Assembly (NCBI GenBank): GCA_018335675.1
Contig: JAGXRQ010000050.1
Location: 34,174 to 98,173 of the forward strand
Length of the DNA stretch: 64,000 bases
Direction of reading: 5' to 3'
Origin: Bacteroidota bacterium
GTDB taxonomy: Bacteria; Bacteroidota; Bacteroidia; Bacteroidales; UBA7960
The notes beneath the pieces were generated by a model. The model searched no databases and was not told where the DNA came from. It worked only from the letters and a program-made list of their open reading frames with translations. The number at the start of each line of letters is the position of its first letter. Position 1 is the first letter of the stretch. The position numbers and the translations under genes are program-made. Below are positions 7,226 through 63,027 of the stretch, piece by piece.

Positions 7226-8836
<1,611 letters not shown>

Positions 8837-24973: not shown

Positions 24974-25156
24974 ATAAAAGATTAGATAGTTGTAACAAAT
25001 AAAATACAAAATTAATAGTTTATTAGTTATTCATTATTAACGAATGAAAATTGAATGCTGGTTTATGCTTGTTTTCATTAATTTATAATGTATAAAAGTG
25101 TAACTTTATAGGCTCCAACAGAGTTTAACAGATATATAAATGTATAAGATATTTTT

Positions 25157-25927
25157 ATGAAGAAAAACAGCTTGATTATTTTTTTGATAATTATTCTTGC
25201 CGCAATATCCTCGTGCGTTCCACATAGAAAGATGGTTTACCTTCAGGATAAAGGAACAGGAGGAGATACCTTAACATTTTCAAAGCCTGAGTATAAAATA
25301 AAAGCGGGCGATATCCTTCATATAAGAGTTTTAACCTTAGATGAGGAATCCTTTATGACGTTCAACAATATTGAAGGCAGAGGAGGCGGTGCTTATTCTT
25401 CAAGAGAAAACCAGATTAGTGTTTATTTGCATGGATATACAGTTAATGATGCTGGAGAAGTAACTCTTCCGATAATTGGAGTTATGAAAGTTACAGGGTT
25501 AACAACAGATGAGGCAATGGATTTAATAAGCAAGCAAATAAGTGAATATCTAATCGGGGCTACAGTAATTGTGAAAATTGCTAACTTTTCTGTAACTATT
25601 TTAGGAGAGGTTAGGCGGCCGGGCAATTATTATGTTTATGATAATAGGTTTACGATTATGGATATAATTGGGCAGGCCGGCGACTTAACAGAGTTTGGTA
25701 ACAGAAAGGTTAATGTAGTCAGGCAAACTGAAGAGGGAGCTATATTTGCGGAGTTGGACATTACAGACAGAAAATCAGTAAGTTCCGAATTCTATTATTT
25801 GCAACCTAATGATTTGGTATATGTTCAGCCCTATGTTGTTAAAAGGCTTGGATTCAGAGAGTTTCCCTTTAGTGTTTTGTTCTCTGCAGTTACAACACTG
25901 ATATTATTATTGAATTTTGTAAATTAA
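25157..25927 (+). CDS. wza: Polysaccharide export outer-membrane lipoprotein (Wza family)
   Basis: Lipobox (AAISSC), Poly_export motif (YKIKAGDILHIRV) and SLBB motif (V.ILGEVRRPG.Y). Confidence 0.88.
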   Translation: MKKNSLIIFLIIILAAISSCVPHRKMVYLQDKGTGGDTLTFSKPEYKIKAGDILHIRVLTLDEESFMTFNNIEGRGGGAYSSRENQISVYLHGYTVNDAGEVTLPIIGVMKVTGLTTDEAMDLISKQISEYLIGATVIVKIANFSVTILGEVRRPGNYYVYDNRFTIMDIIGQAGDLTEFGNRKVNVVRQTEEGAIFAELDITDRKSVSSEFYYLQPNDLVYVQPYVVKRLGFREFPFSVLFSAVTTLILLLNFVN

Positions 25928-25942
25928 GATAATCAAGAAAAG

Positions 25943-28384
25943 ATGAGTCAGGATCCATTTCGCGAAGAAACAATCGATTTTAAAAGGCTTGTGCTAAAGT
26001 ATATTAGGTTTTGGTATTGGTTTGTGATATCAGTGTCTGTAGCATTGGCAATCGGGTATTTTGTAAACAAATTTGCGGAAATTGTTTATAAAGTAAAAGC
26101 TACAGTCTTAATAAAAGATGACAGAAGAGGTGGGTTTAGGGGTAGCCAAGCTTCATCATTTATGAGAGAAATGGATATTTTTAATCCGAGAACAAATATC
26201 TTTAATGAAATAGCGGTTATAAAATCAATTTCATTAGTTGATTCTGCAATTAGAAAGCTTGATTTGGATGTGTCATATTATAATATAGGAAGATTAGTAG
26301 GAGAAATTAGAACTACAGAGATTTATGTAAATAGTCCATTCAGAGTTATTTATGATATAGATAAACAGACATTAAAGAATAAGAGTTTTAATGTTAAAAT
26401 TATTTCGGAAAACGAGTTTGAACTCGAACTATCAGAAACTAGCAAAAAATTTCTTCAAAATGGGAAAAAAACGATAAAAGCAGAGTTTGACAAGCCTGTT
26501 GTTTTAGATGACACATACATAATTGTTGAGAAAAAGGAAACATTTAGTAAAGAAAATCATGTTGGAAGAGAGTTTATTTTTACAATAGAAGATTTAAATA
26601 GCCTTGCGGTAAAATATTTTCCTAAATTAAAGGCGGAACCACTTAGTCAGGATGTTTCAATTGTGGAAATTTCATTCGAAGCAACCAACGCTTTAAGAGC
26701 AATAGACTTTTTGAATTCGCTCATTAATGTTTATTTAGAACAAGGGTTAAATGAAAAAAACCTAACGGCAGAAAATACTATCAAGTTTATTGATCAGCAA
26801 ATAGATATAACTGTTGATTCATTATACATTGCGGAAAAAAAGTTGCAGGAGTTTAGAAAAGAAAAAAGGTTAATGGATATAGGCCAACAAGCAACACAAC
26901 TATTTAATGAGCTACAAAAGCTGGACAATCTAAAAGCATTGGAATCTGTGAGACAAGAGTATTATAACTATTTGTTGCAGTATATTGCTGACAATATGGA
27001 TTTCAGAGAAGTTTTTAGCCCTTCAGCAATAGGGATTGAAGACCCTGTTCTAAATAATCAAATTATTAGGCTTGGAGAATTGTATGCAGAAAAATCTAAA
27101 TTATTATTAAGCACAACATATAGAAGTCCCAACATCAAAATTATTGATTCAGAAATTTTATTGGCAAAGAAAACACTTGAAGAAAATGTCAAAAATCAAA
27201 AAAACTCATCTATTATATATCTAAACGATTTAAATCGTCGAATAGAAACCGTTGAAAACAAAATTACTGAACTGCCAGGGACAGAAAGAGAATTAATTGG
27301 AATTCAAAGACGATTTAATTTAAATGATGCCACTTATAATTATCTGCTTGAAAAAAGGGTTGAAGCAGGAATCGCTCTTGCATCAAATATTTCAGATAAT
27401 AGAATTATTGACGACGCCAGATCTATTGGTTTAGTTTCTCCAAAGAAAAGCAGGAACTATACAATAGCCTTAATTATTGGCTTATTTATTCCTCTATCCA
27501 TATTGATGATTAAAGATTTTTTTAACACCAAGATTCAGGATAAAAAGGACATTACCAATATTGTTAAATTTCCTATACTTGGCATTATTCCTCACAATAA
27601 AAAAACTGGGAAAAGCTCTCGAATTAATTTAATAGTTTTCCAGGACCCCAAGTCGGCGGTTGCAGAAGCATTTAGAGCAATGAGAACTAACTTGCAATAT
27701 TTTGCTGCTGAAGCTCAAAACAAAATAATTTCAATTACAAGCACCAAGTCAGAAGAGGGAAAAACTTTTTCTGCAATTAATCTCGCCTCAGTTATTGCCA
27801 TAAGTGGTAAAAAAGTAGTATTGCTTGGGGCTGATATGAGAAAACCTAGAATACATGATGAATTTGATATTGAAAAAGATCCCGGATTGTCAAACTTCCT
27901 AATTGGCAAAGCCACAATTGATGAAGTAATCCAAAAGGTTGAGCATAATGAATTCCTAAATATAATTACATCTGGGAATACCCCCCCAAACCCATCTGAG
28001 CTTATCGAATCGCCCAGAATGCAGGAGCTATTGACTGAGCTTAAGAAAAGGTATGATTATATTGTAATAGATACTCCGCCTGTAGGCATCGTACCTGACG
28101 CAATTCATATTCTGAAAAAGTCTGACATTGTTGTGTATGTTGTTAGACAGCGATTTACTGAAAGGTCATCTCTAGAGTTTATTAATGAGTTTACATCAAA
28201 GATTGAACTTAATAATATCTGCTTGGAGATTAATGATGTAAAGCTTTCAAAAACTGGCTATGGTTACGGTTATGGTTACGGCTATGGCTATGGTTATAGC
28301 TATGGTTATGGCTACACTGATGAACAAAAAGCCACAAGAGTTTCCTTTCTTAATGAAATTGGAAAAGCATTCAAAAAAACCTAA
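25943..28384 (+). CDS. wzc: Polysaccharide co-polymerase / tyrosine autokinase (Wzc family)
   Basis: Wzz-type N-terminal TM, long periplasmic coiled region, second TM, Walker A (SEEGKTFSAINLA), Walker B (YIVIDTPPVG) and a C-terminal tyrosine cluster. Confidence 0.88.
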   Translation: MSQDPFREETIDFKRLVLKYIRFWYWFVISVSVALAIGYFVNKFAEIVYKVKATVLIKDDRRGGFRGSQASSFMREMDIFNPRTNIFNEIAVIKSISLVDSAIRKLDLDVSYYNIGRLVGEIRTTEIYVNSPFRVIYDIDKQTLKNKSFNVKIISENEFELELSETSKKFLQNGKKTIKAEFDKPVVLDDTYIIVEKKETFSKENHVGREFIFTIEDLNSLAVKYFPKLKAEPLSQDVSIVEISFEATNALRAIDFLNSLINVYLEQGLNEKNLTAENTIKFIDQQIDITVDSLYIAEKKLQEFRKEKRLMDIGQQATQLFNELQKLDNLKALESVRQEYYNYLLQYIADNMDFREVFSPSAIGIEDPVLNNQIIRLGELYAEKSKLLLSTTYRSPNIKIIDSEILLAKKTLEENVKNQKNSSIIYLNDLNRRIETVENKITELPGTERELIGIQRRFNLNDATYNYLLEKRVEAGIALASNISDNRIIDDARSIGLVSPKKSRNYTIALIIGLFIPLSILMIKDFFNTKIQDKKDITNIVKFPILGIIPHNKKTGKSSRINLIVFQDPKSAVAEAFRAMRTNLQYFAAEAQNKIISITSTKSEEGKTFSAINLASVIAISGKKVVLLGADMRKPRIHDEFDIEKDPGLSNFLIGKATIDEVIQKVEHNEFLNIITSGNTPPNPSELIESPRMQELLTELKKRYDYIVIDTPPVGIVPDAIHILKKSDIVVYVVRQRFTERSSLEFINEFTSKIELNNICLEINDVKLSKTGYGYGYGYGYGYGYSYGYGYTDEQKATRVSFLNEIGKAFKKT
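28256..28315 (+). repeat. (Gly-Tyr)x10 coding repeat forming the Wzc tyrosine cluster
   Basis: GYGYGYGYGYGYGYSYGYGY is encoded with alternating synonymous codons (GGC/GGT, TAT/TAC). Confidence 0.9.
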
Positions 28385-28434
28385 AACTATCTATCCCTAT
28401 TTTTTTATTATTTATGGTATTCCGTTATAAGGAG

Positions 28435-28495
28435 CCGCCAAAGATATTAACACATTTAAGTAAATATTGTTAATATCAATATAATGTTTTGGCGG
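28435..28495. promoter_or_regulatory. Nested inverted repeat in the wzc / giant-gene intergenic region
   Basis: Outer arms CCGCCAAA (28435-28442) and TTTGGCGG (28488-28495). Inner perfect 10-nt arms GATATTAACA (28443-28452) and TGTTAATATC (28468-28477). No downstream T-run on the + strand. Confidence 0.5.
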
Positions 28496-28693
28496 ATTAA
28501 AAAAAGATATTAATTTTGGAACTTAGGAGAAGAATTTTTTTAAGCATTTACTTATTTACATGAGTTGAGTTTGCAACAAAAGCACCCTGTTTTTCGTATA
28601 AACAAACATTATTGAAAGATAAGCGTTTGTTTTGCTGACAAGTTGCAATCTCAAACATTTGAGATAACTGAAAATAATATTAAAACAACACAT

Positions 28694-31600
28694 ATGAACA
28701 CTAAAGCCTTATTGTTAAAAAGCATTTTTATTTGCGTTTTTTTAACAATGTTTTTAAATTCTGCAAAAGCACAAAGTCCTGCCGGAATCGGAACATCGGC
28801 AGAAAATGTGCTATGGCTTAGGTCAGATCAGGGCACATCTACAACCACCAACAATAACCCGGTAAGTGGATGGACTGATGCCAGCGGAAATTCTAATGAT
28901 GCAGCGCAGTCAAATGCAGTAAATCAGCCATTGTATATTTCTTCTGGAATAAATGGCTTGCCAACCCTTAGATTTGACGGAGTGAACGATTTTTTGACCG
29001 TTCCTGACAATGACAATCTTGACAATACAGCCGGAGTGTCTGTTTTTGTGGTTGCACAGCCAGATAATCAGGATGCTACACCAAGAGGAATAGTCTCCAA
29101 AAGGGTAAGCGCTGGGAATCAAGAAGCGTATTATTTATTTACTCACACTAACCGTTATTTGTATTTTAATGCTTCAACGAGCAGAATTAACGGAACAGAT
29201 GCTGTAACCGATCAATCACAATTGTTTTCTGCAGTTTATAATGGGAATATTCCAAATCCAAGGTCCAGAGTTTTTATTAACGGAAGTCAGAGTGGAAGTG
29301 GCAATGGCCCTGCAAGCATAGGAAATATGGCTTCTGATTTGCATATAGGGATATTGAATCCTGCATACGGAAGTGGATTTAGAGGCGATATTTCAGAAGT
29401 AATTGTTTATAGAACAGCACTTAATGCTGCAGAAAGATCAATTGTTGAAGCATATTTAGGCAATAGATATAGTCTTTCTTTAGGAAATACTGCTTTTTCT
29501 TCAACAACACATAATTATGGCTTTATTGGTATAGGTCATTCTCAAGGAGAAAAATACATTCAAACTCAAAGCATAGGAAGTGGTTTGTACCTTGAAGAAA
29601 TTAATAACTCTCTCGATGAAACGAATGAATTTGTTTTTGCCGGACATGACAATACCGCCCATGGCACAAACGAACTCGACCTTCCAACGATACCGGATGT
29701 AAATCTTGACCAAAGATGGAATAGGGTTTATTATATTGAAAGAATTCAGGGAGATGTTGTTGATGCAGGCGAAACTGATGTAAGAATTGGTTTTGATTGC
29801 AACGAAGCCGGAATACCAGCAGATGCCTCAAGGCTTTACGTTTTACTTTACAGAGCAGGCACATCAGGAGAATTTTCACATGTTTCTCAAGGTTATGCTA
29901 GTGTAGCAGATAATAAAGTTTATTTTAATGTCGCAAACGCAAACTTTTCTTCCGGTTATTACACTATTGCAAGATCAGATTTAGAAGTGTTAGTGTTTTA
30001 TAGTTTTAATGACGGAAATTGGGATGATCTTAGCAGATGGAGCTTAAATCCTAGTATTTATATTGCTCCTCCAAATCTTCCTGGACCTGCCGATAGAGTT
30101 GTTATTCAAGAAAACAAAACAATAACTGTTAATATAAACAATATTGAAGCAAGTGTTTTGGAGGTAAATCATGGAATAATCGATTTCCAAAATACAACAG
30201 GCCATGTTTTTTCCACAATTACAGGATTGCCTAGTGGATTAATACGAATCTCTTCTGATAATTTTCCTCTTGGAAATATAAGCGGATTTGCAGATGCTTC
30301 TTCCGGTGGAACAGTAGAATATTATGGGGCAGGGTTTTCTTTGGAAGCAACCCGCACATTCAGAAATCTTGTAATTAATTTAAATAACGCGGCTAGTCAA
30401 GTCGTTTTGCTTTCAAATTATACCATAAATGGCAACCTTACAATAAGCAGAGGAGAGTTGCATTTTGGTAATGGCTCTTCTACAATTTCAAGAAATTTGA
30501 CTGTTTATGAAAATGTTACTATTAATGCAAATGGGAAAATAAGAACAGGAACCGCAAATGCTAGACATCAGTTTAGTGTTTATGGCGATTTTACCAATTA
30601 TGGCAATCTTCAATTTACAAACAGAGTTGCTGTAAATTTCGGAGCCGAAGCAACAAATGGCATTGTGGATGTTAATTTCAGAAGTGCCGTTAGAGATCAG
30701 AATATGATTTTAGAAGGTCCGGCAAGGTTTTATAGAATTGCAATTGAAAAGGGACTTACAAATACTTATGAACTATATATGGAAGCTGCACAAGCTTCAT
30801 ATTTTGAACTTTTTGGATATGCCGGACAAGGACATCCTGATAATGCGCAGCTATCTGTAAATAATAATGCATTTGGTTTAGCATATGGAACAGTAAGAGT
30901 AGGACCAAATATTACTATTGCAAGATTGAATCAGGGAGGAAATTATAACGTTTCTGAAAATGCTATTTTATGGGTTGATGGCGGTAGTGTTACAAAGCCT
31001 AGTGGGACAGGAGAAGCGGTTGTTGTTTATGGTAAAATAAAAATTTCAAATGGTACATTTACTTCAAACGCTCCTAGCGGAATAACATCCAGGTTGAATG
31101 GAATTTTTGAATCAACAGGCGGAACTACTGTAATTACTCAGTTTAGAACATCAGTATATGGCTCACATCATATTGGCGGGTACATACAAACAGGCGGACA
31201 TGTTACAATAGATGGGCATAACGCTAATAACAATTATTATAGCTTCTCATTGTCATACGAAGGAAATGCCTTCATCCTTACAGGTGGAACAATGACGGTT
31301 TTAGGAACAAACACCAAAGGGGCAATGTTTATTAACTCCGACCCTGTTAATCACAATGTTAGTGTTTTTACGGGAGCCTTGTTAAATCTTGTTGCAAACA
31401 GTACTAGAATTTTTAAAATTACTTCTAGAGCTCCGTTTCCCAATGTTATTATGAGTAGGGATGGCGCAGGAGCAAGAGAGTTTGTTCTGGAATGTGGTTC
31501 GGTTGGCACTACTCCGGCAAATATGTCGGAATTGAATGCTCAACCATTGGTTGCCAAAGGCTCACTAACGATTCAAGATAATATAATTTTTAACCCTAAG

Positions 31601-34600
31601 GGCAACGACGTTACTATTGGTGCCGGATATTCAATTGGCTCAGGAGCCAGCTATATAGCAGCAAGCAATAATACCATTTTTTCAGGAGCAATAAGTAATT
31701 TCTCAATTGCAATACATGCATCTGCAACCACAAAGTATTTTCATAATTTAGTTTATAATAATCCTAGCAGAATAGGAACATTAACAGTTTCAGATATTGT
31801 CATTGGCAATAATCTTAGTGTTTTGGCAGGAACTTTCAGCACAGGAAATCAGGTTGTTACAGTAAGAGGAAATATTACAAATTCAGCTACAATAGAAAAT
31901 GGAGCTAGCGGCAAAATACTAATTACACATAGAGGCCGTGTGCATACTGTTAATTTGACCAACGGAGGAAGTTATACCTCTGTTCCAACAGTTAGTTTTG
32001 TAGGAGGCGGCGGAGTTGAGGCTTCAGCCGTTGCCGTTTTCGATGGCACACCAAATGCAGGCAACCCTTTGCCTATTAGTAAAATTGTTATTACTAACAC
32101 AGGCAGAGGTTATACTTCTGTGCCTACAGTTAGTATAACAGGAGGCGGTGGAGCAACTGCTACAGCCGTAATTTTAACTACACATGAAATTGGAGGAAAT
32201 GGAAATGGAGTGTTTGGAAATTTGGAGATTGATGAACCAACGACTACTGCTCAGGCTGGCAATATGTATACTTTCTTAACAAGCAATCAAACAGTAGACA
32301 ATCAGCTAATTATTACTAGTGGGGTTTTCGACCTAAGAAACAATAAACTACGTTTGAATGGCGGTCTAAGCAGTGAAATTTGGACAGATTATGGAAACAC
32401 TAGGATGATAAGAACGACAGGAAATCATTCTGATGGTGGATTTGAACGGTATATTGCAGCAAATCAATTATTTTTATTCCCAGTTGGAACAAGAGCCTTG
32501 CCTTCTTATACAGGCAATTTGAATAGGTACACTCCATTAAGGGCGACCATATCAAATCTTAACCCATCCGACAATGGTTTTCTTCAAGTTAATCCCGTTG
32601 GATATGAATTACCAACATTAAATCCCGGCAACTCAAATGAAAGAGCATTAGCTTATTATTGGAGACTAAGGCAGAAAGGGTTTAGCTCTATACCCAATGT
32701 AAACAATGTATTTACATATGATTTAAGGGATGTTAGGACACCTCCAAACATTAATTCCTATGTGGTAGGTAAAATTGTTGAATTAATTAGATATGGTGGG
32801 ACTGGTGGTAATTCTATTGGATCAGTCGCTGCAGATAATACAAATGCGTATAATAGAAACTTCATTTTTAATCAGCACATTCTCGAAACGGGTGAATTTA
32901 CGGGTGGACATTCCACTCGTTTTTCTGGCACAGTAAAAGTATTCTTTTCCCGCCTTAGAGGCACATCTGCAGCACAAAGATTATGGACAGAGACAGCTTC
33001 TTGGACTACCTTAGCTCAAGTTGCAACAAGATTTGGCCTAACCCCTCAGCAAGTGATAGATCAGCCTAATTTATGGCATCTTAGTGATAATCCGGTTTCA
33101 AGCGCCGGAACACCGGTTGCGGGAGATATTGCGGTTATTGGTTGGGTTCCGTGGAATGATCCGGTTGTGGAATACAGAGGCGATCCTCATAATATTAGAA
33201 GCAACAGCGGAACAATAAGTTGCTCTGAACTTATATTTAATCCAATGAAAACTGCATCTGGAGATCCAGCGCCAAGACAATATTGGGATACTTATTTTTT
33301 CAGACCAACTTTAACTTTGACTGGAGGTACAACATTAGTTACTCCTATTGTTTCTGGAGAAGGAACTATTAGAAACCGAGATCAGGATACAGATTTTTCC
33401 TTGATTGATTTGGGCGATTTTGTTGCACAAGACTCTTCCTATGTGCTTTATGAGGTTTTTAGTGCGGTCACAACTCTGAATAATATTCCTGAAGTTTTAC
33501 CTAATCTTTTAATTGCACCAGATGGATGGGGCGGATTTGATAAGACCGCTGTTATTCCTAAAGATATTTTGGTTAAAAAAAATCTTGAAATTCATGGTGC
33601 TGCCAGACTAAGGTTAAATAATGGAGTCGGCGGAAACATCCATGTTTTGGGAGACTTAAGACTACAAAGAGCTTATCGCTACGATCTTGGCATTTATTAC
33701 ACAAATACTAGATTGGAGTTCCAAAATAATGGAATAGCCAGAACTTTGACAATAGAAGGAGATTTTTACACCGAAGGAACATCAGGAATTTATGTTTTAA
33801 ATCCGGGAACAACTCCATTAGAGCATACTTTAAATTTATATGGTAGTTATATTCAAAACGCAACTAATAGTGTTTTAGGGGTTGCACAACCAATCTTGAG
33901 ATTATGGACAGCATCAAATCAGGACAGAGTGAATCTGCTTCTTCTTGGAGAGTCTAGTATGACTTTTTCAGGCAGTAATGTTACTACCCCAATGAGCTTT
34001 TACAATATGTATGTAAACAAAGGAGCTTCAAATATTACTACTGCTTTAAGTGATATTCATTTCACTCTCAACGGACTTACTGATGGAGCTACTTCGGAAA
34101 AAGCTCTTCAACTCCAAAACGGAACCTTAATACTCAATCATCCTGATATTGATATAAATCTTTCAACAGGGGGAGGGGACTTTCAAATACCATCGACATC
34201 TGGACTTGTTGTTAGAAACGGCATTGTAAATGTAAATGGTGCAAATACAGGTATACTTTTAGATGGGCTTTTAGAAATTGAAACCGGAGGAACAGTTGAT
34301 CTTGACGGTGGTATAGGTGTGAATAACTATATTGAGTATTCATCTTCAGGTGCTGCCAGTATTGAAATTACAGGTGGTGAATTAATTGTAGGGTCTCAGA
34401 TTAGAAGAGGAACATCAAACCCTTCTGGCGTTTTAAGGTATACTCAATCTGGTGGAAATGTGATAGTTGGAAAGAATTCGGCTCCTCAAACCAACAGGGG
34501 AGTGTTTGAAGTTTTAAATACAGGCAGCCGCTTTGTATATACAGGAGGAAGCATAACAATTGTAAGACCACAAACAGGAGCAAGTCCTGAAGCTACAGTA

Positions 34601-37600
34601 TTAATTGAGCCTAACGTAGGCTTTGCAGGAAATGCTACTTTGCAATTAGGGAATGATGATACTCCTGCTTCAAGTGTTTTAACTATTAAATCAACAATAG
34701 AGCTTGGCAACTTAGTTGTTACAGGTGTAAATAACCCTACAGCAAGACTAAAAGACAGGTCATTAATCCTAAACAGAGACTTAAGCATTGACTCAGGATG
34801 TGCATTTGATGGAACAGGCTCATTTAATCTTACTGTAAAACGTCATATTTACAATAATGGTAGCCCTAACCTAAATGTGGATTCGTTGTTTCTCTACGGC
34901 ACCAATACATATCCATCGTCTGCTATGCAGGAAATACATGGTAGTGTAAACGTGAAAAACCTTATAGTTTCACCCCAAACATCTGTTACACTGCAGCCGG
35001 CTACAAATCTAAGTATTAGTGAAAATCTTTATATAAGAAGTGGACAGCTGGTTGATGGCGGAAATAATATTAACGTATCGAGAAATGTTTATAACGATGC
35101 CGCTCATGTGTCAAGCAATCCGTCTGCAGGTGGAATTATTTTTTCAGGTACTTTAACGCAGAGATTATTTGGATTAGGTCAATTTGGAAGAGTTGAGGTA
35201 AACAACTCCAACAATGTTATTGCAGAAAATAATATTACACTTCAAAACAACTTAACACTTAGAAATGGTATTTTCCAAATTCAATATCATAAACTAACCT
35301 TGGGCCTTAATGCAAACGTGATTAACGAAGGAGGTCCTTTTAGTGAAACAAAAATTGTTGCCGTTGATGGCAGCAGCTTTTTGAGAGGTATAGAAAAGTA
35401 TATTCCTGCAGTTGCGGGTGGTGGTCCAGCAGCTCCTTATGATATTAATGATGCTGCCTATACTTATAAGGTTACGGTACCTATTGGCTCAGACAATGGT
35501 TCAATCAGAAAGTATACTCCTGTTGAAATTGCTGTTGGAAACAGCAATAGTGTAGGTTCAATTACAATATTCCCTGTTAGTAACAGGCACATCACGATTG
35601 ATCCAGCACCAGGCAGAGTGCTGCAATACTATTGGAATGTCGAAAGTAGGGATTTATCCTCATTTACCGGCCTTTTACGAATGCATTATTTGCAGGGAGA
35701 TGTAAGAGACAATGCCACAGATGAGGCAAGCTATTTAGCTGCACGTTTATATAATGATGAATGGTCTAAGTTTTCTGAACCTGAACCTGGCCCCGGGTTC
35801 TTCCAAATTGTTGATGAGATAAACAATCATGTAGGATTTACTTTTACTAATGTACCAAATATAATTGGTGAATATACTGCCGGAATAGGACCGGATATTC
35901 CTGGCAATGTTCCGGTGTTTATTTCCACAGGTAATGGTAATTGGATAAATCCGGCAACATGGATTAGGGATGGTGGCGGAGTTGTTCCCGACAACGGACC
36001 GGCAGGACACATAGTTAGAATTTTAACTGGACATACAGTAATTATCGCAGATAATTTCAGGCAAGCTTACAGAACTGAAATTCATGGCACCGGTAGACTC
36101 AACGTTGGCTCTACAGTTAATCATATTCTTGGAATTGTAAGCGGAACCGGCACCCTGGAACTTACTACTAATTCTGTTCCCGCAGGTAACTATGATGCAT
36201 TTATCGCTTCTGATGGTGGAACTTTTGAATTTGGGGGAGTTGGCTATGGTTTGCCTACCAGATTTAGCCAATATAATAATTTAATACTCAAAGGTAGTGG
36301 CACAAAAAGTTTCCCTGCAGAAGTGGTTACTATTTTGGGTAATTTAAGCATTTTAGAAACAACAACATTAAGTGCCTCAAGAAATATAAATTTGAGAGGG
36401 AACTTGACAAAAGATGATACCGCAAATCTTGTTTCTTCAAATATTATTAAGTTTGAAGGAAATACAACACAGCAAATTAATGGAAACTTTTCCGGTGCTT
36501 TCTGGATTCATTTAGCAAATTCTACTGGAAGTAACATTAATCTTAATGGTAATATGACTACATCAGGGTTAATTTGGCTTGAGAATGGCGTTATGAGAGT
36601 GGGTAATGGCTTTGTGCTTCAATCTGACAACACTAACGGGTTTTTCTCTTCATCAGATGCGAATTTTGACAGAAGCTGGATAGAGGGTACTTTCAGACGT
36701 AGACTTTCATCAGGAACATCACCAAACTATCGAAATCAGGCTTTTGCAATTGGCAGAAACGGAAAGGTTAGACATGTGAGATTGTCTAATGTTTCTGTAG
36801 CTAATCAATACTGGACAGCTGAGTATTTCGACTCTAATCCGCTAGATGATGGGATGGACCCTGAGTCTATCAATGGAGACCCTATCCCGTTAGAGAAAGT
36901 CAGCAATATAGAGTTTTGGAGAGTTGTGGGTCCTGATGGTGCAAGCGCTAGAGTTCAGCTTAATTGGGGCTATGAAAGTGGGTTGCCTGACGGAGATCTT
37001 GATTTAATTCGCAATAGCACAGTTGTGGGAGAGTGGAATGGTTCTGCTTGGACTAATAAAGGCAATAATGGAAGTGTTTCTGCCTCAGGAAATGGAACAT
37101 GGACATCAGGTACTGTAAATGCCGGCACTATTTCATCTTTTTCAACTAAGTATTTTACAATAGCAACTACAGATGAAAACAACCCTCTCCCTGTTGAATT
37201 CCTATCTATCGATGCTTATCTGCAAAACGAATATGTTGTTGTAGAATGGGTTACTGCCACTGAGAGAAATAATGATTTCTTTACTGTGGAAAGAAGCAGG
37301 GATGCTGTGAATTTTGAAGTAATATCAGTTGTTCAAAGTAAGGCTGAATTTGGAAATAGCAACCAAGTTCTTTCTTATTCAGTAATTGACAGTTCTCCAT
37401 TAATAGGACTTACTTATTATAGAATAAAACAAACAGATTTCGATGGCACGGTTGATTATAGCAATCTGATAGGTGTGTTTTATCAAACCAAATCAGACGT
37501 TACAATAAACTTATATCCAAACCCAAACAGGGGCTATGAGTTTAATATGGTGATGGACGGACTTATAAGCTTTGAAAATGTCGTTATTACTATAACAAAT

Positions 37601-37759
37601 CTTTATGGTAAAACTGTACAAACTGATTTTGTAAATGCCGATGATCAAGGCAGACTTATTAGAAAAGTTTCTCCGGTAAGAAAACTTGAACCTGGTGTTT
37701 ATATTATAACGGTATCAGCTAATTCGGGTCGATTTAATACTAGGATGGTTGTTAATTAA
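28694..37759 (+). CDS. Giant (~3,020 aa) secreted surface protein: signal peptide, LamG-like domain, long degenerate beta-helix-like repeats, T9SS C-terminal sorting domain
   Basis: The ATG at 28694 gives MNTKALLLKSIFICVFLTMFLNSAKAQ. LamG_3-like block (GWTDASGNSND...LRFDGVNDFL...GDISEVIVYRTALNAAERSIVEAYLGNRYSL). The C-terminus is a typical T9SS CTD (LYPNPN...ITITNLYGKTV...LEPGVYIITVSANSGRFNTRMVVN). Confidence 0.85.
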   Translation: MNTKALLLKSIFICVFLTMFLNSAKAQSPAGIGTSAENVLWLRSDQGTSTTTNNNPVSGWTDASGNSNDAAQSNAVNQPLYISSGINGLPTLRFDGVNDFLTVPDNDNLDNTAGVSVFVVAQPDNQDATPRGIVSKRVSAGNQEAYYLFTHTNRYLYFNASTSRINGTDAVTDQSQLFSAVYNGNIPNPRSRVFINGSQSGSGNGPASIGNMASDLHIGILNPAYGSGFRGDISEVIVYRTALNAAERSIVEAYLGNRYSLSLGNTAFSSTTHNYGFIGIGHSQGEKYIQTQSIGSGLYLEEINNSLDETNEFVFAGHDNTAHGTNELDLPTIPDVNLDQRWNRVYYIERIQGDVVDAGETDVRIGFDCNEAGIPADASRLYVLLYRAGTSGEFSHVSQGYASVADNKVYFNVANANFSSGYYTIARSDLEVLVFYSFNDGNWDDLSRWSLNPSIYIAPPNLPGPADRVVIQENKTITVNINNIEASVLEVNHGIIDFQNTTGHVFSTITGLPSGLIRISSDNFPLGNISGFADASSGGTVEYYGAGFSLEATRTFRNLVINLNNAASQVVLLSNYTINGNLTISRGELHFGNGSSTISRNLTVYENVTINANGKIRTGTANARHQFSVYGDFTNYGNLQFTNRVAVNFGAEATNGIVDVNFRSAVRDQNMILEGPARFYRIAIEKGLTNTYELYMEAAQASYFELFGYAGQGHPDNAQLSVNNNAFGLAYGTVRVGPNITIARLNQGGNYNVSENAILWVDGGSVTKPSGTGEAVVVYGKIKISNGTFTSNAPSGITSRLNGIFESTGGTTVITQFRTSVYGSHHIGGYIQTGGHVTIDGHNANNNYYSFSLSYEGNAFILTGGTMTVLGTNTKGAMFINSDPVNHNVSVFTGALLNLVANSTRIFKITSRAPFPNVIMSRDGAGAREFVLECGSVGTTPANMSELNAQPLVAKGSLTIQDNIIFNPKGNDVTIGAGYSIGSGASYIAASNNTIFSGAISNFSIAIHASATTKYFHNLVYNNPSRIGTLTVSDIVIGNNLSVLAGTFSTGNQVVTVRGNITNSATIENGASGKILITHRGRVHTVNLTNGGSYTSVPTVSFVGGGGVEASAVAVFDGTPNAGNPLPISKIVITNTGRGYTSVPTVSITGGGGATATAVILTTHEIGGNGNGVFGNLEIDEPTTTAQAGNMYTFLTSNQTVDNQLIITSGVFDLRNNKLRLNGGLSSEIWTDYGNTRMIRTTGNHSDGGFERYIAANQLFLFPVGTRALPSYTGNLNRYTPLRATISNLNPSDNGFLQVNPVGYELPTLNPGNSNERALAYYWRLRQKGFSSIPNVNNVFTYDLRDVRTPPNINSYVVGKIVELIRYGGTGGNSIGSVAADNTNAYNRNFIFNQHILETGEFTGGHSTRFSGTVKVFFSRLRGTSAAQRLWTETASWTTLAQVATRFGLTPQQVIDQPNLWHLSDNPVSSAGTPVAGDIAVIGWVPWNDPVVEYRGDPHNIRSNSGTISCSELIFNPMKTASGDPAPRQYWDTYFFRPTLTLTGGTTLVTPIVSGEGTIRNRDQDTDFSLIDLGDFVAQDSSYVLYEVFSAVTTLNNIPEVLPNLLIAPDGWGGFDKTAVIPKDILVKKNLEIHGAARLRLNNGVGGNIHVLGDLRLQRAYRYDLGIYYTNTRLEFQNNGIARTLTIEGDFYTEGTSGIYVLNPGTTPLEHTLNLYGSYIQNATNSVLGVAQPILRLWTASNQDRVNLLLLGESSMTFSGSNVTTPMSFYNMYVNKGASNITTALSDIHFTLNGLTDGATSEKALQLQNGTLILNHPDIDINLSTGGGDFQIPSTSGLVVRNGIVNVNGANTGILLDGLLEIETGGTVDLDGGIGVNNYIEYSSSGAASIEITGGELIVGSQIRRGTSNPSGVLRYTQSGGNVIVGKNSAPQTNRGVFEVLNTGSRFVYTGGSITIVRPQTGASPEATVLIEPNVGFAGNATLQLGNDDTPASSVLTIKSTIELGNLVVTGVNNPTARLKDRSLILNRDLSIDSGCAFDGTGSFNLTVKRHIYNNGSPNLNVDSLFLYGTNTYPSSAMQEIHGSVNVKNLIVSPQTSVTLQPATNLSISENLYIRSGQLVDGGNNINVSRNVYNDAAHVSSNPSAGGIIFSGTLTQRLFGLGQFGRVEVNNSNNVIAENNITLQNNLTLRNGIFQIQYHKLTLGLNANVINEGGPFSETKIVAVDGSSFLRGIEKYIPAVAGGGPAAPYDINDAAYTYKVTVPIGSDNGSIRKYTPVEIAVGNSNSVGSITIFPVSNRHITIDPAPGRVLQYYWNVESRDLSSFTGLLRMHYLQGDVRDNATDEASYLAARLYNDEWSKFSEPEPGPGFFQIVDEINNHVGFTFTNVPNIIGEYTAGIGPDIPGNVPVFISTGNGNWINPATWIRDGGGVVPDNGPAGHIVRILTGHTVIIADNFRQAYRTEIHGTGRLNVGSTVNHILGIVSGTGTLELTTNSVPAGNYDAFIASDGGTFEFGGVGYGLPTRFSQYNNLILKGSGTKSFPAEVVTILGNLSILETTTLSASRNINLRGNLTKDDTANLVSSNIIKFEGNTTQQINGNFSGAFWIHLANSTGSNINLNGNMTTSGLIWLENGVMRVGNGFVLQSDNTNGFFSSSDANFDRSWIEGTFRRRLSSGTSPNYRNQAFAIGRNGKVRHVRLSNVSVANQYWTAEYFDSNPLDDGMDPESINGDPIPLEKVSNIEFWRVVGPDGASARVQLNWGYESGLPDGDLDLIRNSTVVGEWNGSAWTNKGNNGSVSASGNGTWTSGTVNAGTISSFSTKYFTIATTDENNPLPVEFLSIDAYLQNEYVVVEWVTATERNNDFFTVERSRDAVNFEVISVVQSKAEFGNSNQVLSYSVIDSSPLIGLTYYRIKQTDFDGTVDYSNLIGVFYQTKSDVTINLYPNPNRGYEFNMVMDGLISFENVVITITNLYGKTVQTDFVNADDQGRLIRKVSPVRKLEPGVYIITVSANSGRFNTRMVVN

Positions 37760-37849
37760 GTCGAAAGTCAGAAGTCGAAAGTCGACAGTTCTATGTAAAT
37801 TGCTAACTATCGACTGCTGACTATCGACTGCCGACTTTCGACTATTGAC
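37760..37849. repeat. Inverted pair of heptamer tandem arrays (GTCGAAA-type x4 and GACTNNC-type x6), probable bidirectional terminator hairpin
   Basis: 7-nt periodicity read directly. 37773-37784 (AGTCGAAAGTCG) is the exact reverse complement of 37832-37843. Lies between convergent genes. Confidence 0.7.
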
Positions 37850-38393
37850 TTAAATTAAACTTCTCTGGATGTCTTGCGCCTTTTCCTTTGTAGAATTCTT
37901 GTATAGATTTCATTATTACTTCGTAATCATCCGAGGGATTTAAAACTGGTCCAAAGCCTCCGGTTTTTAGCTTGTAATCAAGGTAGCCGCATACTATTGG
38001 CACATTAGCTTCTTTTGCAATATGATAAAAACCTTTTTTCCAGTTAGTAACAAGCTTGCGCGTACCTTCAGGAGTAACTACTAAATATAGCTCCTTGCTG
38101 TTTTCAAAAGCTTTGTGAACGCTTTTAATAGCACTTCTACTGTTAGATCGGTCAACAGGAATACCTCCCAAAGATTTTAGAATAGGCCCGAATGGAAAAG
38201 CAAAGGATTCTTTTTTTATCATAAATTTTCCTTTGAACTTATACGCCGTAAAAGCCAGCCAACCATAAACGAAATCATAATAGCTAGTATGTGGAGCCAT
38301 TATTACAACAGCTTTTTTGATGTCAGCAGGCATGTTAGAGTCTATTTTCCAGCCCTTTTGCTTCAAAATAAAATTGGCTATTCTACTTTTCAT
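37842..38393 (-). CDS. 1-acyl-sn-glycerol-3-phosphate acyltransferase family protein (PlsC-like)
   Basis: HX4D motif (APHTSYYDF) and the PEGTR motif. The ATG at 38393 avoids overlap with rlmN; the tracked start at 38417 is also possible. Confidence 0.8.
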   Translation of the reverse strand: MKSRIANFILKQKGWKIDSNMPADIKKAVVIMAPHTSYYDFVYGWLAFTAYKFKGKFMIKKESFAFPFGPILKSLGGIPVDRSNSRSAIKSVHKAFENSKELYLVVTPEGTRKLVTNWKKGFYHIAKEANVPIVCGYLDYKLKTGGFGPVLNPSDDYEVIMKSIQEFYKGKGARHPEKFNLSQ

Positions 38394-39453
38394 TGTTTTT
38401 ATCTTTTTTTCGTTCAATTCTACACGCTAATTGTCCGCACGCGGCATCAATATCTGCGCCTTTGCTTTGTCTAATGTTTACAATTAAATTTTTATTTTCC
38501 AGGTATCTTACAAAACTCGAAAGATCTTGTTTGCTGCCTGGTTTAAAAGGTATTCCATTCACAGGGTTATATTCAATAATATTTATTTTGCAAGGACTAA
38601 TTTTGCAAAACTCTGCTAGCAAAGCTGCATCATCTAGAGTATCATTAAAGCCTTTCAAAAACAAATACTCGTAGGTAATTCTTGAGCCTGTTTGTTCATG
38701 AAAATATTGTATTACTTTTTTAAGCTCAAACAAATCATTCTTTGTGTTTGTTGGCATAATTCTGCTTCTTTTCTCATTATCTGCTGTATGAAGAGAAATT
38801 GCCAAATTATACTTTACGTTATCATCAGCCATTTGTTTTATGCCACTTATTATTCCTGCAGTTGAAAGTGTAATTCTTGAAGGCGACATCCCCATTCCGT
38901 TTGAAGTGGTCATAAAATTTATAGCCTTGCTTACTTCATCATAATTTAAAAGAGGCTCGCCCATTCCCATTAAAACAACATTACTGATGCTGTCGTCAAA
39001 TTGCTCTAAAGCTATTTTTTCAATTTCTGCCAATTGGTCATAAATTTCATATGCCATAAGATTTCTCTTAAATCCCATAGTGGCAGTTGCACAGAATTTG
39101 CAGCCCAACGCACAGCCTACTTGTGATGAAATACAAGCTGTTAATCTGTCGCCTGAAGGTATAATTACCCCTTCAATCAGTGAATTATCAAATAAGCGAA
39201 ATGCTATTTTTATTGTGTTATCCTTGCTTTGTTGCTTTGACGTGATTTTAGGATATCCAATAAAAAACTCCTTACTTAATTTTTCTCTTAATTCAGATGA
39301 AAGATTTGTCATATCATCAAAACTGTGTGCATGTTTTTTCCAAAGCCACTCGTGTAACTGTTTAGCTCTGAAAGGCTTTTCCCCACACTTTTTTATAATT
39401 GCAATATATTCTTGCGGGTCAAGAGTTTTAATATCTATTTTGTCATCTTTCAT
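38383..39453 (-). CDS. rlmN: 23S rRNA/tRNA (adenine-C2)-methyltransferase, radical SAM
   Basis: FRAKQLHEWLW, SSQVGCALGCKFCATA, MGMGEPL and ACGQL. Confidence 0.93.
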   Translation of the reverse strand: MKDDKIDIKTLDPQEYIAIIKKCGEKPFRAKQLHEWLWKKHAHSFDDMTNLSSELREKLSKEFFIGYPKITSKQQSKDNTIKIAFRLFDNSLIEGVIIPSGDRLTACISSQVGCALGCKFCATATMGFKRNLMAYEIYDQLAEIEKIALEQFDDSISNVVLMGMGEPLLNYDEVSKAINFMTTSNGMGMSPSRITLSTAGIISGIKQMADDNVKYNLAISLHTADNEKRSRIMPTNTKNDLFELKKVIQYFHEQTGSRITYEYLFLKGFNDTLDDAALLAEFCKISPCKINIIEYNPVNGIPFKPGSKQDLSSFVRYLENKNLIVNIRQSKGADIDAACGQLACRIERKKDKNNEK

Positions 39454-39544
39454 GCTGGCAAAGATACTAAGTTTATTGTTTGAAATTTTTAGTGTAATTT
39501 TATACGGCTTTCAAATTCTGTTTCTTTTAATATTCAATGCTTTA

Positions 39545-40165
39545 ATGAAAAATCAATTTTTGATTTGGTTATCAGAAGTCTTTTATAAAAAATCATTAAC
39601 CTGGAAAGTAAAAACTACTGAAAAAGAAGTTTTTATAACCTTTGATGATGGTCCGACTGAATCATATACTGAAAAAATTCTTGAAATTCTTGATTGCTAT
39701 AATGTTAGAGCAACATTTTTTTGCTTAGCTAAAAATGTGGAAAAATTCCCCGAGTTATTTGAAAGGATAAAACATTCCGGACATTCCATTGGAAATCATG
39801 GATATGAGCACTTGAATGGATGGAAAATATCAAGAGAAAAATTTCTTGAAAATGTTTTTAAAGCTGATAAAATCATTAGTTCAAAAATATTCAGACCACC
39901 TTATGGAGGTATTACCCCATGTCAAGCAAAGGGAATTTCAAAGCATTTTAAAGTGATTATGTGGAGAACAATGTCAAGAGATTATTCTAGGAGAATGACT
40001 GCGGAAAAGTGTTTAAAAAGGCTTAAAAGGAATATAACCCCTGGCGACATAATTGTTTTTCATGATTCCGAATCGGCATCTGAAACTACTATAAAAGTAT
40101 TGCCTGAATTTTTAAAGTATATAAATGAAAAAGGGTATAAAACATCTGTGATAAATGAGGTGTGA
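39545..40165 (+). CDS. Polysaccharide deacetylase (NodB / CE4 family)
   Basis: FITFDDGP, ATFF and SIGNHGYEH. The start is placed at ATG 39545 because the tracked ORF upstream of 39453 is antisense to rlmN. ATG 39452 is an alternative that would add a TM helix. Confidence 0.8.
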   Translation: MKNQFLIWLSEVFYKKSLTWKVKTTEKEVFITFDDGPTESYTEKILEILDCYNVRATFFCLAKNVEKFPELFERIKHSGHSIGNHGYEHLNGWKISREKFLENVFKADKIISSKIFRPPYGGITPCQAKGISKHFKVIMWRTMSRDYSRRMTAEKCLKRLKRNITPGDIIVFHDSESASETTIKVLPEFLKYINEKGYKTSVINEV

Positions 40166-62892: not shown

Positions 62893-63027
62893 AGGATTGT
62901 ACAACTTGAGATTAAGGAAATATTATTTGCCATTAAAAACAATAACTATTGTGACAAAAATTGATTTTGCGCAGCAAATGTAATTTAATTTTTATTGCAG
63001 TTGCACAGAGTTAGTCGATTTTGTGCT

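Follow-up and report, generated by a model that had tools for sequence, protein, structure and literature searches.

A gene of 3,021 codons lies directly behind a wza-wzc pair in the 64 kb stretch of DNA analysed here (the window), which comes from an uncultured Bacteroidales bacterium, and this raises the question of what so large a protein does and whether its function is tied to the polysaccharide exporter next to it. A preliminary description offered two readings: wza-wzc may be orphan genes that work for a distant locus, or they may be functionally linked to a giant adhesin-like protein. From its sequence and predicted structure, we consider that the protein is probably an independently transcribed, glycan-binding fibre anchored at the cell surface through the T9SS. 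The features of the locus are collected in Table 1.

Table 1. Features of the wza-wzc-giant gene locus in window coordinates (aa, residues of the giant protein).
Feature	Position	Strand	Basis or detail
Beta-lactamase-fold protein, divergent, upstream neighbour of wza-wzc	23723-25009	-	
wza, 256-aa outer-membrane polysaccharide export lipoprotein	25157-25927	+	Poly_export and one SLBB; hydrophobic C-terminal segment
wzc, 813-aa PCP-2a tyrosine autokinase	25943-28384	+	Wzz, GNVR, AAA_31 (P-loop)
Predicted hairpin/palindrome in wzc-giant spacer	28435-28495	+	Core GATATTAACA-N15-TGTTAATATC (28443-28477), flanks CCGCCAAA/TTTGGCGG
Bacteroidetes-type promoter consensus match	28488-28518	+	-33 TTTG, 19-nt spacer, -7 TAATTTTG; ~175 nt 5' of giant ATG
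Giant gene, 3,021 codons and stop	28694-37759	+	ORF translation
Sec signal peptide, aa 1-26	28694-28771	+	Predicted cleavage AKA|Q; A-Q junction kept in family consensus
LamG/concanavalin A-like jelly-roll, aa ~30-261	28781-29476	+	PF13385, phrog_10356
S0 beta-sandwich, aa 262-432, between LamG and first solenoid	29477-29989	+	AF2 model 1
H1, first solenoid module, aa 433-1077	29990-31924	+	G8-like cap GNWDDLSRWSLNP...PGPADRVVIQ at start; hhalign, AF2, Foldseek
Module-1-only insert, aa 1078-1168	31925-32197	+	Tandem small domain ...GSYTSVPTVSFVGGGG / ...RGYTSVPTVSITGGGG
Linker and S1 beta-sandwich, aa 1169-1399	32198-32890	+	Motif FPVGT...RYTP...YYWRLR; hhalign S1~S2, AF2 strands
H2, second solenoid module, aa 1400-2158	32891-35167	+	hhalign; alignment A8; AF2 model 2
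Linker and S2 beta-sandwich, aa 2159-2399	35168-35890	+	Colinear with aa 1169-1342; S1~S2 hhalign
H3, third, shortened solenoid module, aa 2400-2660	35891-36673	+	Cap GNWINPATWIRDGGGVVPDNGPAGHIVRI; hhalign against H1, H2
S3 beta-sandwich, aa 2661-2832	36674-37189	+	S2~S3 hhalign; AF2 model 2
FN3-like pre-CTD beta-sandwich, aa 2833-2938	37190-37507	+	PLPVEFLS...WVTATERNNDFF...YYRIKQTDFDG; Foldseek
Type A T9SS C-terminal sorting domain, aa 2939-3021, and stop codon	37508-37759	+	TIGR04183, PF18962
PlsC-type acyltransferase, downstream neighbour of giant gene	37842-38417	-	

The two ends of the giant protein identify it as T9SS cargo. Its longest frame opens at TTG 28643; ATG 28694 was taken as the start on two grounds: alignments with homologues run from residue 1-5 onward, and in comparison with the closest relative the DNA becomes conserved at this ATG. 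The translation opens with a Sec-type signal peptide, MNTKALLLKSIFICVFLTMFLNSAKA|QSPAG, followed by a jelly-roll that matches Laminin_G_3 (PF13385) in Pfam at aa 95-247 (33.2 bits, cut-off 27.6) and phrog_10356 at aa 39-263 (E 8e-19). At the C-terminus the NCBIfam model TIGR04183 (cut-off 23) scores 28.1 bits with the entire protein and 35 bits when only the C-terminal 194 aa are searched, and Por_Secre_tail (PF18962) scores 25.9 bits, slightly below its Pfam cut-off of 27 (E 1.2e-5). The domain just before the sorting domain is conserved across 20 homologues; sequence searches of PDB and Pfam returned no significant match to it, and Foldseek matched it to tandem FN3 structures (E 1e-5), with strings of FN3 domains and PorU (6za2) among the fold matches of the C-terminal region. 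The open reading frame with its signal peptide, the jelly-roll, the sorting domain and the PVEFLS...YYRIKQTDFDG module preceding it had all been proposed in the preliminary description and are borne out. This arrangement resembles type A cargo such as the gingipains of P. gingivalis and RemA of F. johnsoniae, which share the Sec signal peptide, a sorting domain of ~80 aa (TIGR04183/PF18962), an Ig/FN3-like domain directly before it and expected surface attachment once secreted. It differs in having no protease or rhamnose-binding lectin domain and in that a previously undescribed triple solenoid makes up ~80% of the chain.

The central region had been read as a loosely degenerate run of 20-25-aa beta-helix-like repeats. 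Its beta-helix-like character stands, but it is built of three large duplicated modules, two full-length and one short, in each of which a G8-like cap leads into a beta-helix-like solenoid, followed by a beta-sandwich; the repeat peptide quoted earlier maps to ~aa 580-619. The duplication is clearest between H1 and H2 (hhalign probability 100%, E 4e-58, 578 columns) and extends to H3 (99.7%, E 8e-27 with H1; 98.7% with H2) and to the sandwiches (S1~S2 98.9%, E 1e-17; S2~S3 77%). Two AlphaFold models are all-beta and confident (pLDDT 86.6, pTM 0.71; pLDDT 87.1, pTM 0.58). Periodic short strands fill H1 (pLDDT mostly >90), the solenoid part of H2 is also modelled at pLDDT >90, S0 has strands at residues 26-188 of model 1 (pLDDT 80-93) and S3 is less certain (pLDDT 60-90), while the final ~60 residues of model 1, in the linker/S1 region, are of low confidence. 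The insert after H1 is without counterpart in module 2 on the colinear hhalign map; phrog_460 matches aa 1058-1153, and we tentatively assign to this insert the ~85-column BFVD matches to phage proteins (30-44% identity). Pfam, NCBIfam and PDB gave zero coverage of the central ~2,400 aa, and S0 has no match in Pfam or NCBIfam.

Against solved structures the solenoids matched best, though weakly, the beta-helix passengers of type Va autotransporter adhesins (Ag43, EspP, Hbp, pertactin) and phage tailspikes; all H1 matches are weak. The passengers and the giant solenoids are long all-beta stalks of short periodic strands, and the surface adhesin or self-association role of the passengers is likewise proposed here. 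There is no sequence homology between them, however, the fold similarity is slight (TM <= 0.24), and the giant protein uses the T9SS, lacks a C-terminal beta-barrel and has three solenoids with sandwich domains between them.

Many polysaccharide lyases and hydrolases are also built on the beta-helix fold, and at least one solenoid module could instead be a glycan-active domain (lyase, hydrolase or epimerase) with an environmental polysaccharide or the product of Wza-Wzc as its substrate, in the manner of exopolysaccharide-pathway beta-helix enzymes or phage tailspike depolymerases. The weak fold matches do include the tailspike depolymerases HK620 and LKA1 gp49 and the pectate lyase PelI. Each module opens with a G8-like cap (W-x(5-7)-W...P...D/H-x-V-x-I at the solenoid start), and G8 followed by a beta-helix is the arrangement of the hyaluronan-degrading CEMIP/TMEM2 proteins. 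Unlike CEMIP/TMEM2 and PKHD1, the giant protein of the window has no match to G8 (PF10162) and no GG domains; three of 12 family members do match, one of them (P0030) with 24.5 bits (cut-off 22.9) at the place equivalent to the H1 cap. Conservation within the family peaks in H2, at GILLDGLL...NNYIEYSSSG...VGSQIRR...RGVFEV, where the Q and R of SQIRR are invariant among the 33 sequences of alignment A8. Module 2 has a strongly conserved polar patch with an invariant Q-x-R, and invariant polar residues recur at equivalent sites of modules 1 and 2 (H625/H1711, K686/K1776, Q816-R818/Q1902-R1904). These could mark an active site instead of a binding face. Nevertheless, glycoside hydrolase and polysaccharide lyase families were unmatched in Pfam, NCBIfam and PDB sequence searches even at E <= 1-10, no conserved acidic pair was seen, the invariant positions are mostly Gly, Pro or hydrophobic and so suggest structural roles, adhesin passengers head the fold matches, and a module present three times in one chain fits a stalk better. 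We therefore regard an enzyme as quite improbable and prefer the surface fibre.

The surface-fibre reading is also supported by the family as a whole. Homologues form 455 clusters at E <= 1e-30, within Bacteroidota and ~3,000 aa long, and both length and architecture are maintained over 455-671 clusters. The central region might have proved to be a well-described adhesin family, but the family is without a characterised member. Tandem paralogues, typical of surface-protein families, occur in many genomes. Some homologues that lack the type A domain (P0008, P0010) adjoin genes for CHU_C, a type B sorting domain, and for PorP/SprF, which is the arrangement of type B T9SS cargo such as SprB. Together with the giant size and repetitive nature of this T9SS cargo, these close homologues raise the idea of a mobile gliding adhesin that, like SprB, the gliding machinery would carry over the cell surface. 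This we consider very improbable for the protein of the window: its sorting domain is type A, SprB-repeat and RemA-type lectin domains are absent from it, it has no PorP/SprF neighbour, and gld, spr and PorP genes were not found in the 64 kb.

If the giant protein is a surface fibre, is it a partner of Wza-Wzc? The wza product carries a lipobox-like ...LAAISSC and matches PF02563 (E 5e-16) and SLBB in Pfam; the wzc product scores 165.9 bits with TIGR01007 (cut-off 108) and, judging from its Walker A (TSTKSEEGKT) and Walker B (YIVIDTPP) motifs and (GY)n tyrosine tail GYGYGYGYGYGYGYSYGYGY, looks intact. As in the wza-wzb-wzc genes of E. coli K30 (Group 1/Wzy-dependent loci), an OPX lipoprotein adjoins a PCP-2a tyrosine autokinase whose tail is rich in Tyr, here across a 15 bp gap. 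Unlike in K30, the Wza of 256 aa is short, with a single SLBB domain, and genes for a wzb phosphatase, an initiating transferase, glycosyltransferases, Wzx and Wzy are all missing from at least 25 kb to each side; glycosyltransferase, Wzx (flippase) and Wzy (polymerase) genes were not seen in the whole 64 kb window or directly flanking it either. The exporter/kinase pair looks intact and is, as first described, an orphan.

While wza and wzc are nearly contiguous, wzc and the giant gene are always separated by a conserved spacer of 300-470 bp (309 nt in the window). Its predicted hairpin (RNA fold -19.4 kcal/mol, z = -4.75; none of 200 shuffles folds as well) contains inverted repeats I3 and I8 in a block kept in the closest relative (L011), and is a candidate boundary element or operator. 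The promoter match lies in a spacer block almost identical in that relative (~97% by our count), which carries the same motif at the equal relative position (8665-8695); TTTG-N19-TAATTTTG occurs nine times in the 64 kb against 4.5 expected, the spacer site being one of the nine. Although promoter and hairpin are consensus- and energy-based predictions only, the spacer length, the stability of the hairpin and the promoter consensus within a footprint common to L011 make the giant gene look like a transcription unit separate from wza-wzc. No U-tract terminator was found after wzc, so some read-through is possible.

The wza-wzc-giant order recurs in four of ~30 genome loci with enough upstream sequence and on one metagenome contig. 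Besides the closest relative, three other species (L002, L005, L014) and the contig (L058) have it, the Wzc of these being orthologous at 58-59% identity, so homologues next to wza-wzc do exist in related genomes. The triad is missing from equally close homologues (P0004/L003, 57% identity; P0008, 54%; P0010, 51%), from P0013, L006, L007, L010 and L013, and from all Cytophagales loci. The linked giant genes lie on two branches of the tree and are not monophyletic, an exclusive linked clade appearing in 12% of bootstraps. Upstream of wza are pyruvate kinase and MgtE in L002, L005 and L014, as against dUTPase and the beta-lactamase-fold protein in the window, and on a further contig with a Wzc orthologue (L059) a different gene, of 191 aa, follows wzc.

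These data bear on a partnership in which the exported polysaccharide is bound or organised by the fibre or surrounds it, the fibre serving for example as a lectin-tipped fibril holding a capsule or slime layer or driving cell-cell aggregation via the polymer. Retention of the triad in six loci, the window included, with upstream genes in three of them that differ from those in the window, the two branches, which fit an old arrangement retained twice, and the lectin-like LamG tip all agree with it. So does a precedent, to our knowledge the only one for a fibre/exporter link: mutations in wza and wzc reportedly abolish RemA-dependent aggregation. The remA gene is presumably not adjacent to wza-wzc, and RemA and the giant protein are not homologous, the sorting domain being their only common domain. 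As summarised in PMC8481357 (citing Shrivastava 2012), RemA, like the giant protein T9SS-secreted and with a lectin-type domain, is a mobile adhesin of F. johnsoniae whose overexpression makes cells aggregate through its binding to a galactose-containing EPS, a phenotype that needs the secreted polysaccharide. Set against such a partnership are the few linked loci, the equally close unlinked homologues, the spacer of at least 300 bp with its promoter match and hairpin, the other gene behind wzc in L059 and a polymer left undefined by the nearby genes. We judge the partnership rather unlikely. The orphan status first described is upheld, and the evidence speaks against an obligate link or an operon; since most homologues do not adjoin wza-wzc, linkage is not general.

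A model for the independently transcribed surface fibre draws on the signal peptide, LamG and above-cut-off type A domain, the all-beta models with adhesin-type matches and whole-module duplication, and the family-wide architecture, adhesin-style contexts and tandem paralogues. According to the model, the gene would have a promoter of its own within the 309-nt spacer and would not be transcribed as a member of a wza-wzc operon. The signal peptide would direct the protein into the periplasm by the Sec pathway and the sorting domain would take it through the T9SS translocon; by analogy with type A cargo, the sorting domain would then be removed and the new C-terminus joined to surface lipopolysaccharide. 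The C-terminal sandwich domains would sit beside the membrane, the three solenoid modules would form a long, most likely rigid stalk of tens of nanometres and the LamG jelly-roll would occupy the distal tip. The tip is the likeliest ligand-binding, in this case glycan-binding, element; a further candidate site, for binding or self-association, is the strongly conserved face of module 2.

Survival of the triad in two sub-lineages, despite differing genes upstream of wza, hints at some selective value, and a functional tie between the giant protein and the exported polysaccharide is possible. The adjacency nonetheless reflects inheritance within a small group of Bacteroidales and does not define the family, which is a large and uncharacterised one of predicted lectin-tipped beta-helix fibres.

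Translation from the ATG at 28694, within a plus-strand frame that is open over 28643-37759 in the six-frame ORF list, gives 3,021 residues and a stop codon, in agreement with the preliminary description. This ATG is the likely start because homologues align from residue 1-5 and because DNA conservation with the closest relative resumes at ATGAACAC. The N-terminus read from the translation, MNTKALLLKSIFICVFLTMFLNSAKA|QSPAG, has a positively charged N-region, a hydrophobic core and the junction AKA|Q, of which A|Q is kept in the family consensus, and is predicted to be a typical Sec signal peptide. The LamG and T9SS sorting domains proposed from the sequence likewise held up in profile searches: the Pfam model Laminin_G_3 scored above its cut-off and is also matched by 9 of 12 homologues, and the NCBIfam model TIGR04183 reached 28.1 bits with the whole protein and 35 bits with a C-terminal fragment, against a cut-off of 23. 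Pfam Por_Secre_tail fell slightly below its cut-off over the same C-terminal stretch, which forms a beta-sandwich in the AF2 model. The giant protein combines the sorting domain and Sec signal of a type A T9SS cargo with a LamG domain. There was no further Pfam or NCBIfam match over residues 248-2939, and matches to K1-lyase_Rider (E 0.047), TafC and CatB, all weak, were dismissed as noise. In the region of the LamG domain the match to the phage virion structural family phrog_10356 is far stronger than that to the LamG model of Pfam (E 7e-8).

The central region had been described as degenerate strand repeats of 20-25 residues. Simple tandem repeats of this length are ruled out as its make-up by profile comparison with hhalign, which revealed large, colinear module duplications instead. 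When a 12-sequence family alignment was cut into 120-aa tiles and every pair of tiles was compared, residues ~400-1390 proved to be colinear with ~1390-2380 over their full length, and ~2370-2830 to be a shortened third copy. Comparisons at the level of domains, for which 61-sequence profiles were used, related the solenoids (H1-H3) and the beta-sandwich domains (S1-S3) of the three modules to one another as listed in the table.

Features of the giant gene, its protein product and the surrounding window
Feature	Window position (strand)	Residues	Observation
wza	25157-25927 (+)	256 aa	Pfam: Poly_export, single SLBB
wzc	25943-28384 (+)	813 aa	Pfam: Wzz, GNVR, P-loop; TIGR01007 165.9 bits (cut-off 108)
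Tyrosine cluster of Wzc	28300-28384	C-terminus	(GY)n tract GYGYGYGYGYGYGYSYGYGY
Hairpin/palindrome	28435-28495		-19.4 kcal/mol, z = -4.75; 0/200 shuffles as stable
Palindrome block	28435-28522		candidate operator and/or transcription boundary
Promoter consensus match	28488-28518		TTTG-N19-TAATTTTG; one of 9 matches in 64 kb, 4.5 expected
Giant gene	28694-37759 (+)	1-3021	
phrog_10356 match	28808-29482	39-263	E 8e-19
Laminin_G_3 (PF13385)		95-247	33.2 bits (cut-off 27.6)
Solenoid H1		433-1077	with H2: probability 100%, E 4e-58, 578 columns; with H3: probability 99.7%, E 8e-27
Insert, module 1 only	31925-32197	1078-1168	~90 aa
Sandwich S1		1236-1400	with S2: probability 98.9%, E 1e-17
Solenoid H2		1400-2158	
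Sandwich S2		2236-2400	with S3: probability 77%, E 2e-5
Solenoid H3		2400-2660	
Sandwich S3		2660-2832	
FN3-like pre-CTD domain		2833-2938	
Sorting domain (CTD)		2939-3021	beta-sandwich in AF2 model
Por_Secre_tail (PF18962)		2940-3020	25.9 bits (cut-off 27)
RlmN gene	38383-39453 (-)		
Polysaccharide deacetylase ORF	39080-40165 (+)		GTG start
Second T9SS cargo gene	61117-62904 (-)		Disaggr_assoc, Por_Secre_tail

At the start of each solenoid stands a cap rich in Trp, such as GNWDDLSRWSLNP...PGPADRVVIQ or GNWINPATWIRDGGGVVPDNGPAGHIVRI. The G8 model (PF10162) did not match the giant protein itself; it is this cap that matches it in 3 of 12 homologues (best E 0.0023), with P0030 scoring 24.5 bits against a cut-off of 22.9. 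No Beta_helix/PbH1-type Pfam model was matched at E <= 1 by the giant protein or by the 12 homologues. The segment most conserved across the family lies in module 2 and reads F-x-IPST...GILLDGLL...NNYIEYSSSG...VGSQIRR...RGVFEV...TGG-x-LTIVR, and modules 1 and 2 share conserved His, Lys and Q-x-R at corresponding positions. The insert that is confined to module 1 carries a tandem ...YTSVPTVS-x-x-GGGG-x-x-A-x-A motif. A phage structural family, phrog_460, matches residues 1058-1153 around this insert, and BFVD gave matches over ~85 columns, at 30-44% identity, to tail-fibre-like/YHYH-domain proteins, which we assign to the insert as well. These matches suggest a small domain common to phage virion proteins and bacterial surface giants.

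AF2 models computed from the family alignment for residues 250-1400 (pLDDT 86.6, pTM 0.71) and 1900-3021 (pLDDT 87.1, pTM 0.58) are both all-beta, with short strands every 6-10 residues in the solenoid parts. In Foldseek searches of the PDB the first model matched the helices of autotransporter passengers (Ag43 7koh, EspP 3sze, Hbp 3ak5, pertactin 1dab), the tailspikes of HK620 and LKA1 gp49, and pectate lyase PelI, all weakly (E >= 7e-3, TM <= 0.24). The second model matched tandem FN3 strings (contactins, gp130; E ~1e-5) and PorU, which fits the predicted sandwiches of S3, the pre-CTD domain and the CTD. Profiles of the conserved module-2 core, the pre-CTD domain and the family as a whole found no significant match among PDB sequences. 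Homology to the GhpA grappling hook, an idea taken from PMC12998431, is unlikely, there being no significant PDB sequence or fold match.

With moderate confidence, and on the strength of the models and their structural analogues, we regard the giant protein as probably a fibrillar adhesin or glycan-binding fibre. From what is known of the T9SS (reviewed in PMC5445135), it would pass through this system, lose its sorting domain to PorU and become attached to surface lipopolysaccharide, with the C-terminus proximal and the LamG domain distal. The fold class and the adhesin-passenger analogues suggest that it would then stand out as a rigid stalk, tens of nanometres in length, with a lectin-like tip. 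That the protein is a glycan-active enzyme is a rival reading; no CAZyme signature was found, and we consider this distinctly unlikely.

The fibre proposed here has many relatives. A word-indexed search with the giant protein gave 128 matches, ~60 of them full-length (~2,400-3,700 aa), at 27-59% identity, all of which are unnamed or labelled "T9SS sorting domain protein". An exhaustive comparison of residues 1400-2400 with representatives yielded 455 clusters at E <= 1e-30, and 671 under the looser limit of E <= 1e-3; since most of the clusters are ~3,000 aa long with the match at ~1400-2400, the architecture is conserved in the family. Matches in genomes belong to Bacteroidota (Bacteroidales, Rikenellaceae, Tenuifilaceae, Cyclobacteriaceae, Fulvivirga, Marivirga, Ekhidna, Chitinophagales), and the few elsewhere are probably binning strays. 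The window has one copy, whereas in many genomes two or three paralogues of the giant gene are neighbours, arranged in tandem or divergently (L002, L012, L015, L019, L022, L023, L024, L028, L033, L034). A giant, beta-rich surface protein secreted by the T9SS is a well-known kind of object. Its family and triple-module architecture appear to be undescribed and to have no characterised member; a full-text literature search turned up nothing beyond generic remarks on T9SS cargo with LamG domains, such as those on Ekhidna (PMC12998431).

In some family members the type A domain is missing and Ig-like_POM152-type domains are found towards the C-terminus; their genes stand beside CHU_C and PorP/SprF genes, which is the arrangement of type B cargo. 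Close homologues without a type A domain (L050 19498-22614; L051/L052 6547-9866) are flanked by a conserved trio consisting of a ~300-aa protein without assigned identity, a CHU_C protein of 364 aa (type B sorting domain) and a member of the PorP/SprF family, which suggests that T9SS targeting in the family switches between the two types. That the giant protein of the window is a mobile adhesin like SprB is highly improbable, because it has neither SprB-repeat nor RemA-type lectin Pfam domains, its sorting domain is of type A and there is no PorP/SprF gene within the window.

Directly upstream, both the OPX protein Wza and the PCP-2a tyrosine kinase Wzc appear to be present and intact, Wzc with its Walker A and B motifs. 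Wza is short but has a hydrophobic segment, FPFSVLFSAVTTLILLLNFVN, at its C-terminal end; it may span the outer membrane by itself or rely on a beta-barrel partner in the manner of class 3 OPX proteins (PMC9603273, PMC12819527). In Wzc the tyrosines cluster in a tract of unusual regularity, which is also found in the orthologue on metagenome contig L059. Pfam annotation of every gene in the window and its immediate flanks revealed housekeeping functions only, such as ribosomal proteins, ATP synthase, RecJ, dUTPase, RlmN, adenine deaminase, MeaB and an RND pump, and no glycosyltransferase, initiating transferase, Wzx flippase, Wzy polymerase or Wzb. The locus is not a complete Wzy-dependent locus, and the pair was correctly called an orphan. 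A polysaccharide deacetylase and a Big_5 protein are encoded 1.8-4.3 kb downstream of the giant gene. The deacetylase ORF overlaps the RlmN gene by ~370 bp; in the source gene call it starts ~465 bp later and encodes 206 aa, and the overlap is gone. Immediately outside the left edge of the window, ~25 kb from wza-wzc, lie a sulfotransferase and an ABC transporter gene (L054 1-1758); apart from these, no genes of a glycan-modification type were seen close by. The second T9SS cargo gene of the window points indirectly to a T9SS-proficient host, and proteins with a CTD are also present in related loci.

The wza and wzc genes are 15 bp apart, and wzc is separated from the giant gene by 309 bp in the window and by roughly 300-470 bp in other loci where the three genes are adjacent. 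The core of the spacer hairpin is a perfect 10-nt inverted repeat, GATATTAACA-N15-TGTTAATATC, nested in CCGCCAAA/TTTGGCGG. The sequence AAAGATATTAA, with its half-site, occurs twice, at 28440 and 28503, the second copy lying over the -7 box. Hairpin and Bacteroidetes promoter match fall inside a block of ~85 bp that is ~97% identical, by our own count, to L011, the nearest relative; the remaining spacer has diverged, and the promoter motif of L011 stands at the same distance from the start codon. A sigma-70 promoter and intrinsic-terminator scan of 24900-29000 found no enrichment and no terminator, U-tract terminators included, and no Rfam family was matched in the spacer. The palindrome block has the appearance of an operator at which a dimeric regulator would bind, of a boundary of transcription, or of both. 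Because the conserved block holds both hairpin and promoter match, the giant gene is predicted to have a separate, probably regulated promoter, and these features, together with the length of the spacer, argue against co-transcription of all three genes.

How far the gene order wza-wzc-giant is conserved bears on whether the pair serves a distant locus or is functionally linked to the giant protein, the two options of the preliminary description. We compared 47 genome loci (one genome per species, flanks of up to 10 kb), searching them by tblastn with all neighbours of the giant gene in the window and by all-against-all ORF clustering. The pair lies directly upstream of the giant gene in only four: L011, whose neighbours are 75-96% identical to those of the window and which belongs to the same MAG as L004, a locus with the same downstream genes; and L002, L005 and L014 from three other species, where the giant protein is 51-59% and Wzc 58-59% identical. 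When metagenome contigs were in turn scanned with Wzc, two more loci emerged: L058, which has all three genes, and L059, where wzc is followed by a 191-aa ORF and the contig end. In the L002 group wza is preceded by genes for a T9SS S51 peptidase, pyruvate kinase and MgtE, in the window by those for a beta-lactamase-fold protein and dUTPase, and L002 has a second giant paralogue downstream; the triad has therefore persisted although its neighbours changed, upstream of wza at least and in L002 on both sides.

Against this, some 26 further loci with 3.5 kb or more of upstream sequence lack the triad, among them those of homologues at 51-57% identity. Equally close homologues have wholly different neighbours (P0004/L003, 57%; P0008, 54%; P0010, 51%; P0013, 42%; L006, L007, L010, L013), and the neighbours differ in every Cytophagales locus. 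Bootstrapped NJ analysis places the window protein with L003/L008, which are unlinked (78%), and L002/L005 with L006, likewise unlinked (77.5%). The linked genes are not monophyletic, an exclusive clade of them being recovered in 12% of replicates. The simplest reading is that the triad is an old arrangement of one Bacteroidales subgroup that was repeatedly lost, the alternative being paralogy beyond the resolution of these data. The triad is suggestive yet far from a conserved module, and the comparison gives the functional link weak support.

A true partnership of the giant protein with the Wza-Wzc polymer, for which RemA offers a precedent in that it aggregates cells via galactose-containing EPS (PMC8481357), is doubtful. 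We would give little credence to the further possibility that the triad is an ancestral three-gene module in which the fibre is surface receptor, organiser or processing enzyme of the polymer and the conserved H/K/Q-x-R solenoid faces are polysaccharide-binding or -cleaving grooves. If true, it would be an undescribed Bacteroidales protein-polysaccharide surface layer system coupling T9SS and OPX/PCP export; any functional linkage would join these two routes in building the cell surface, which at present is a hypothesis only.

For annotation, the practical gain is the domain map of the giant protein, and adjacency to wza-wzc should not serve to infer the function of its family. Of the surface structures that environmental Bacteroidota display, giant T9SS cargo proteins rank with the most abundant and the least understood. 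With hundreds of ~3,000-aa members of strictly conserved architecture, in which ~2,400 residues have no Pfam, NCBIfam or PDB coverage, the family of the probable fibre provides a defined, modellable target for the study of bacterial attachment to particles, polymers and other cells.
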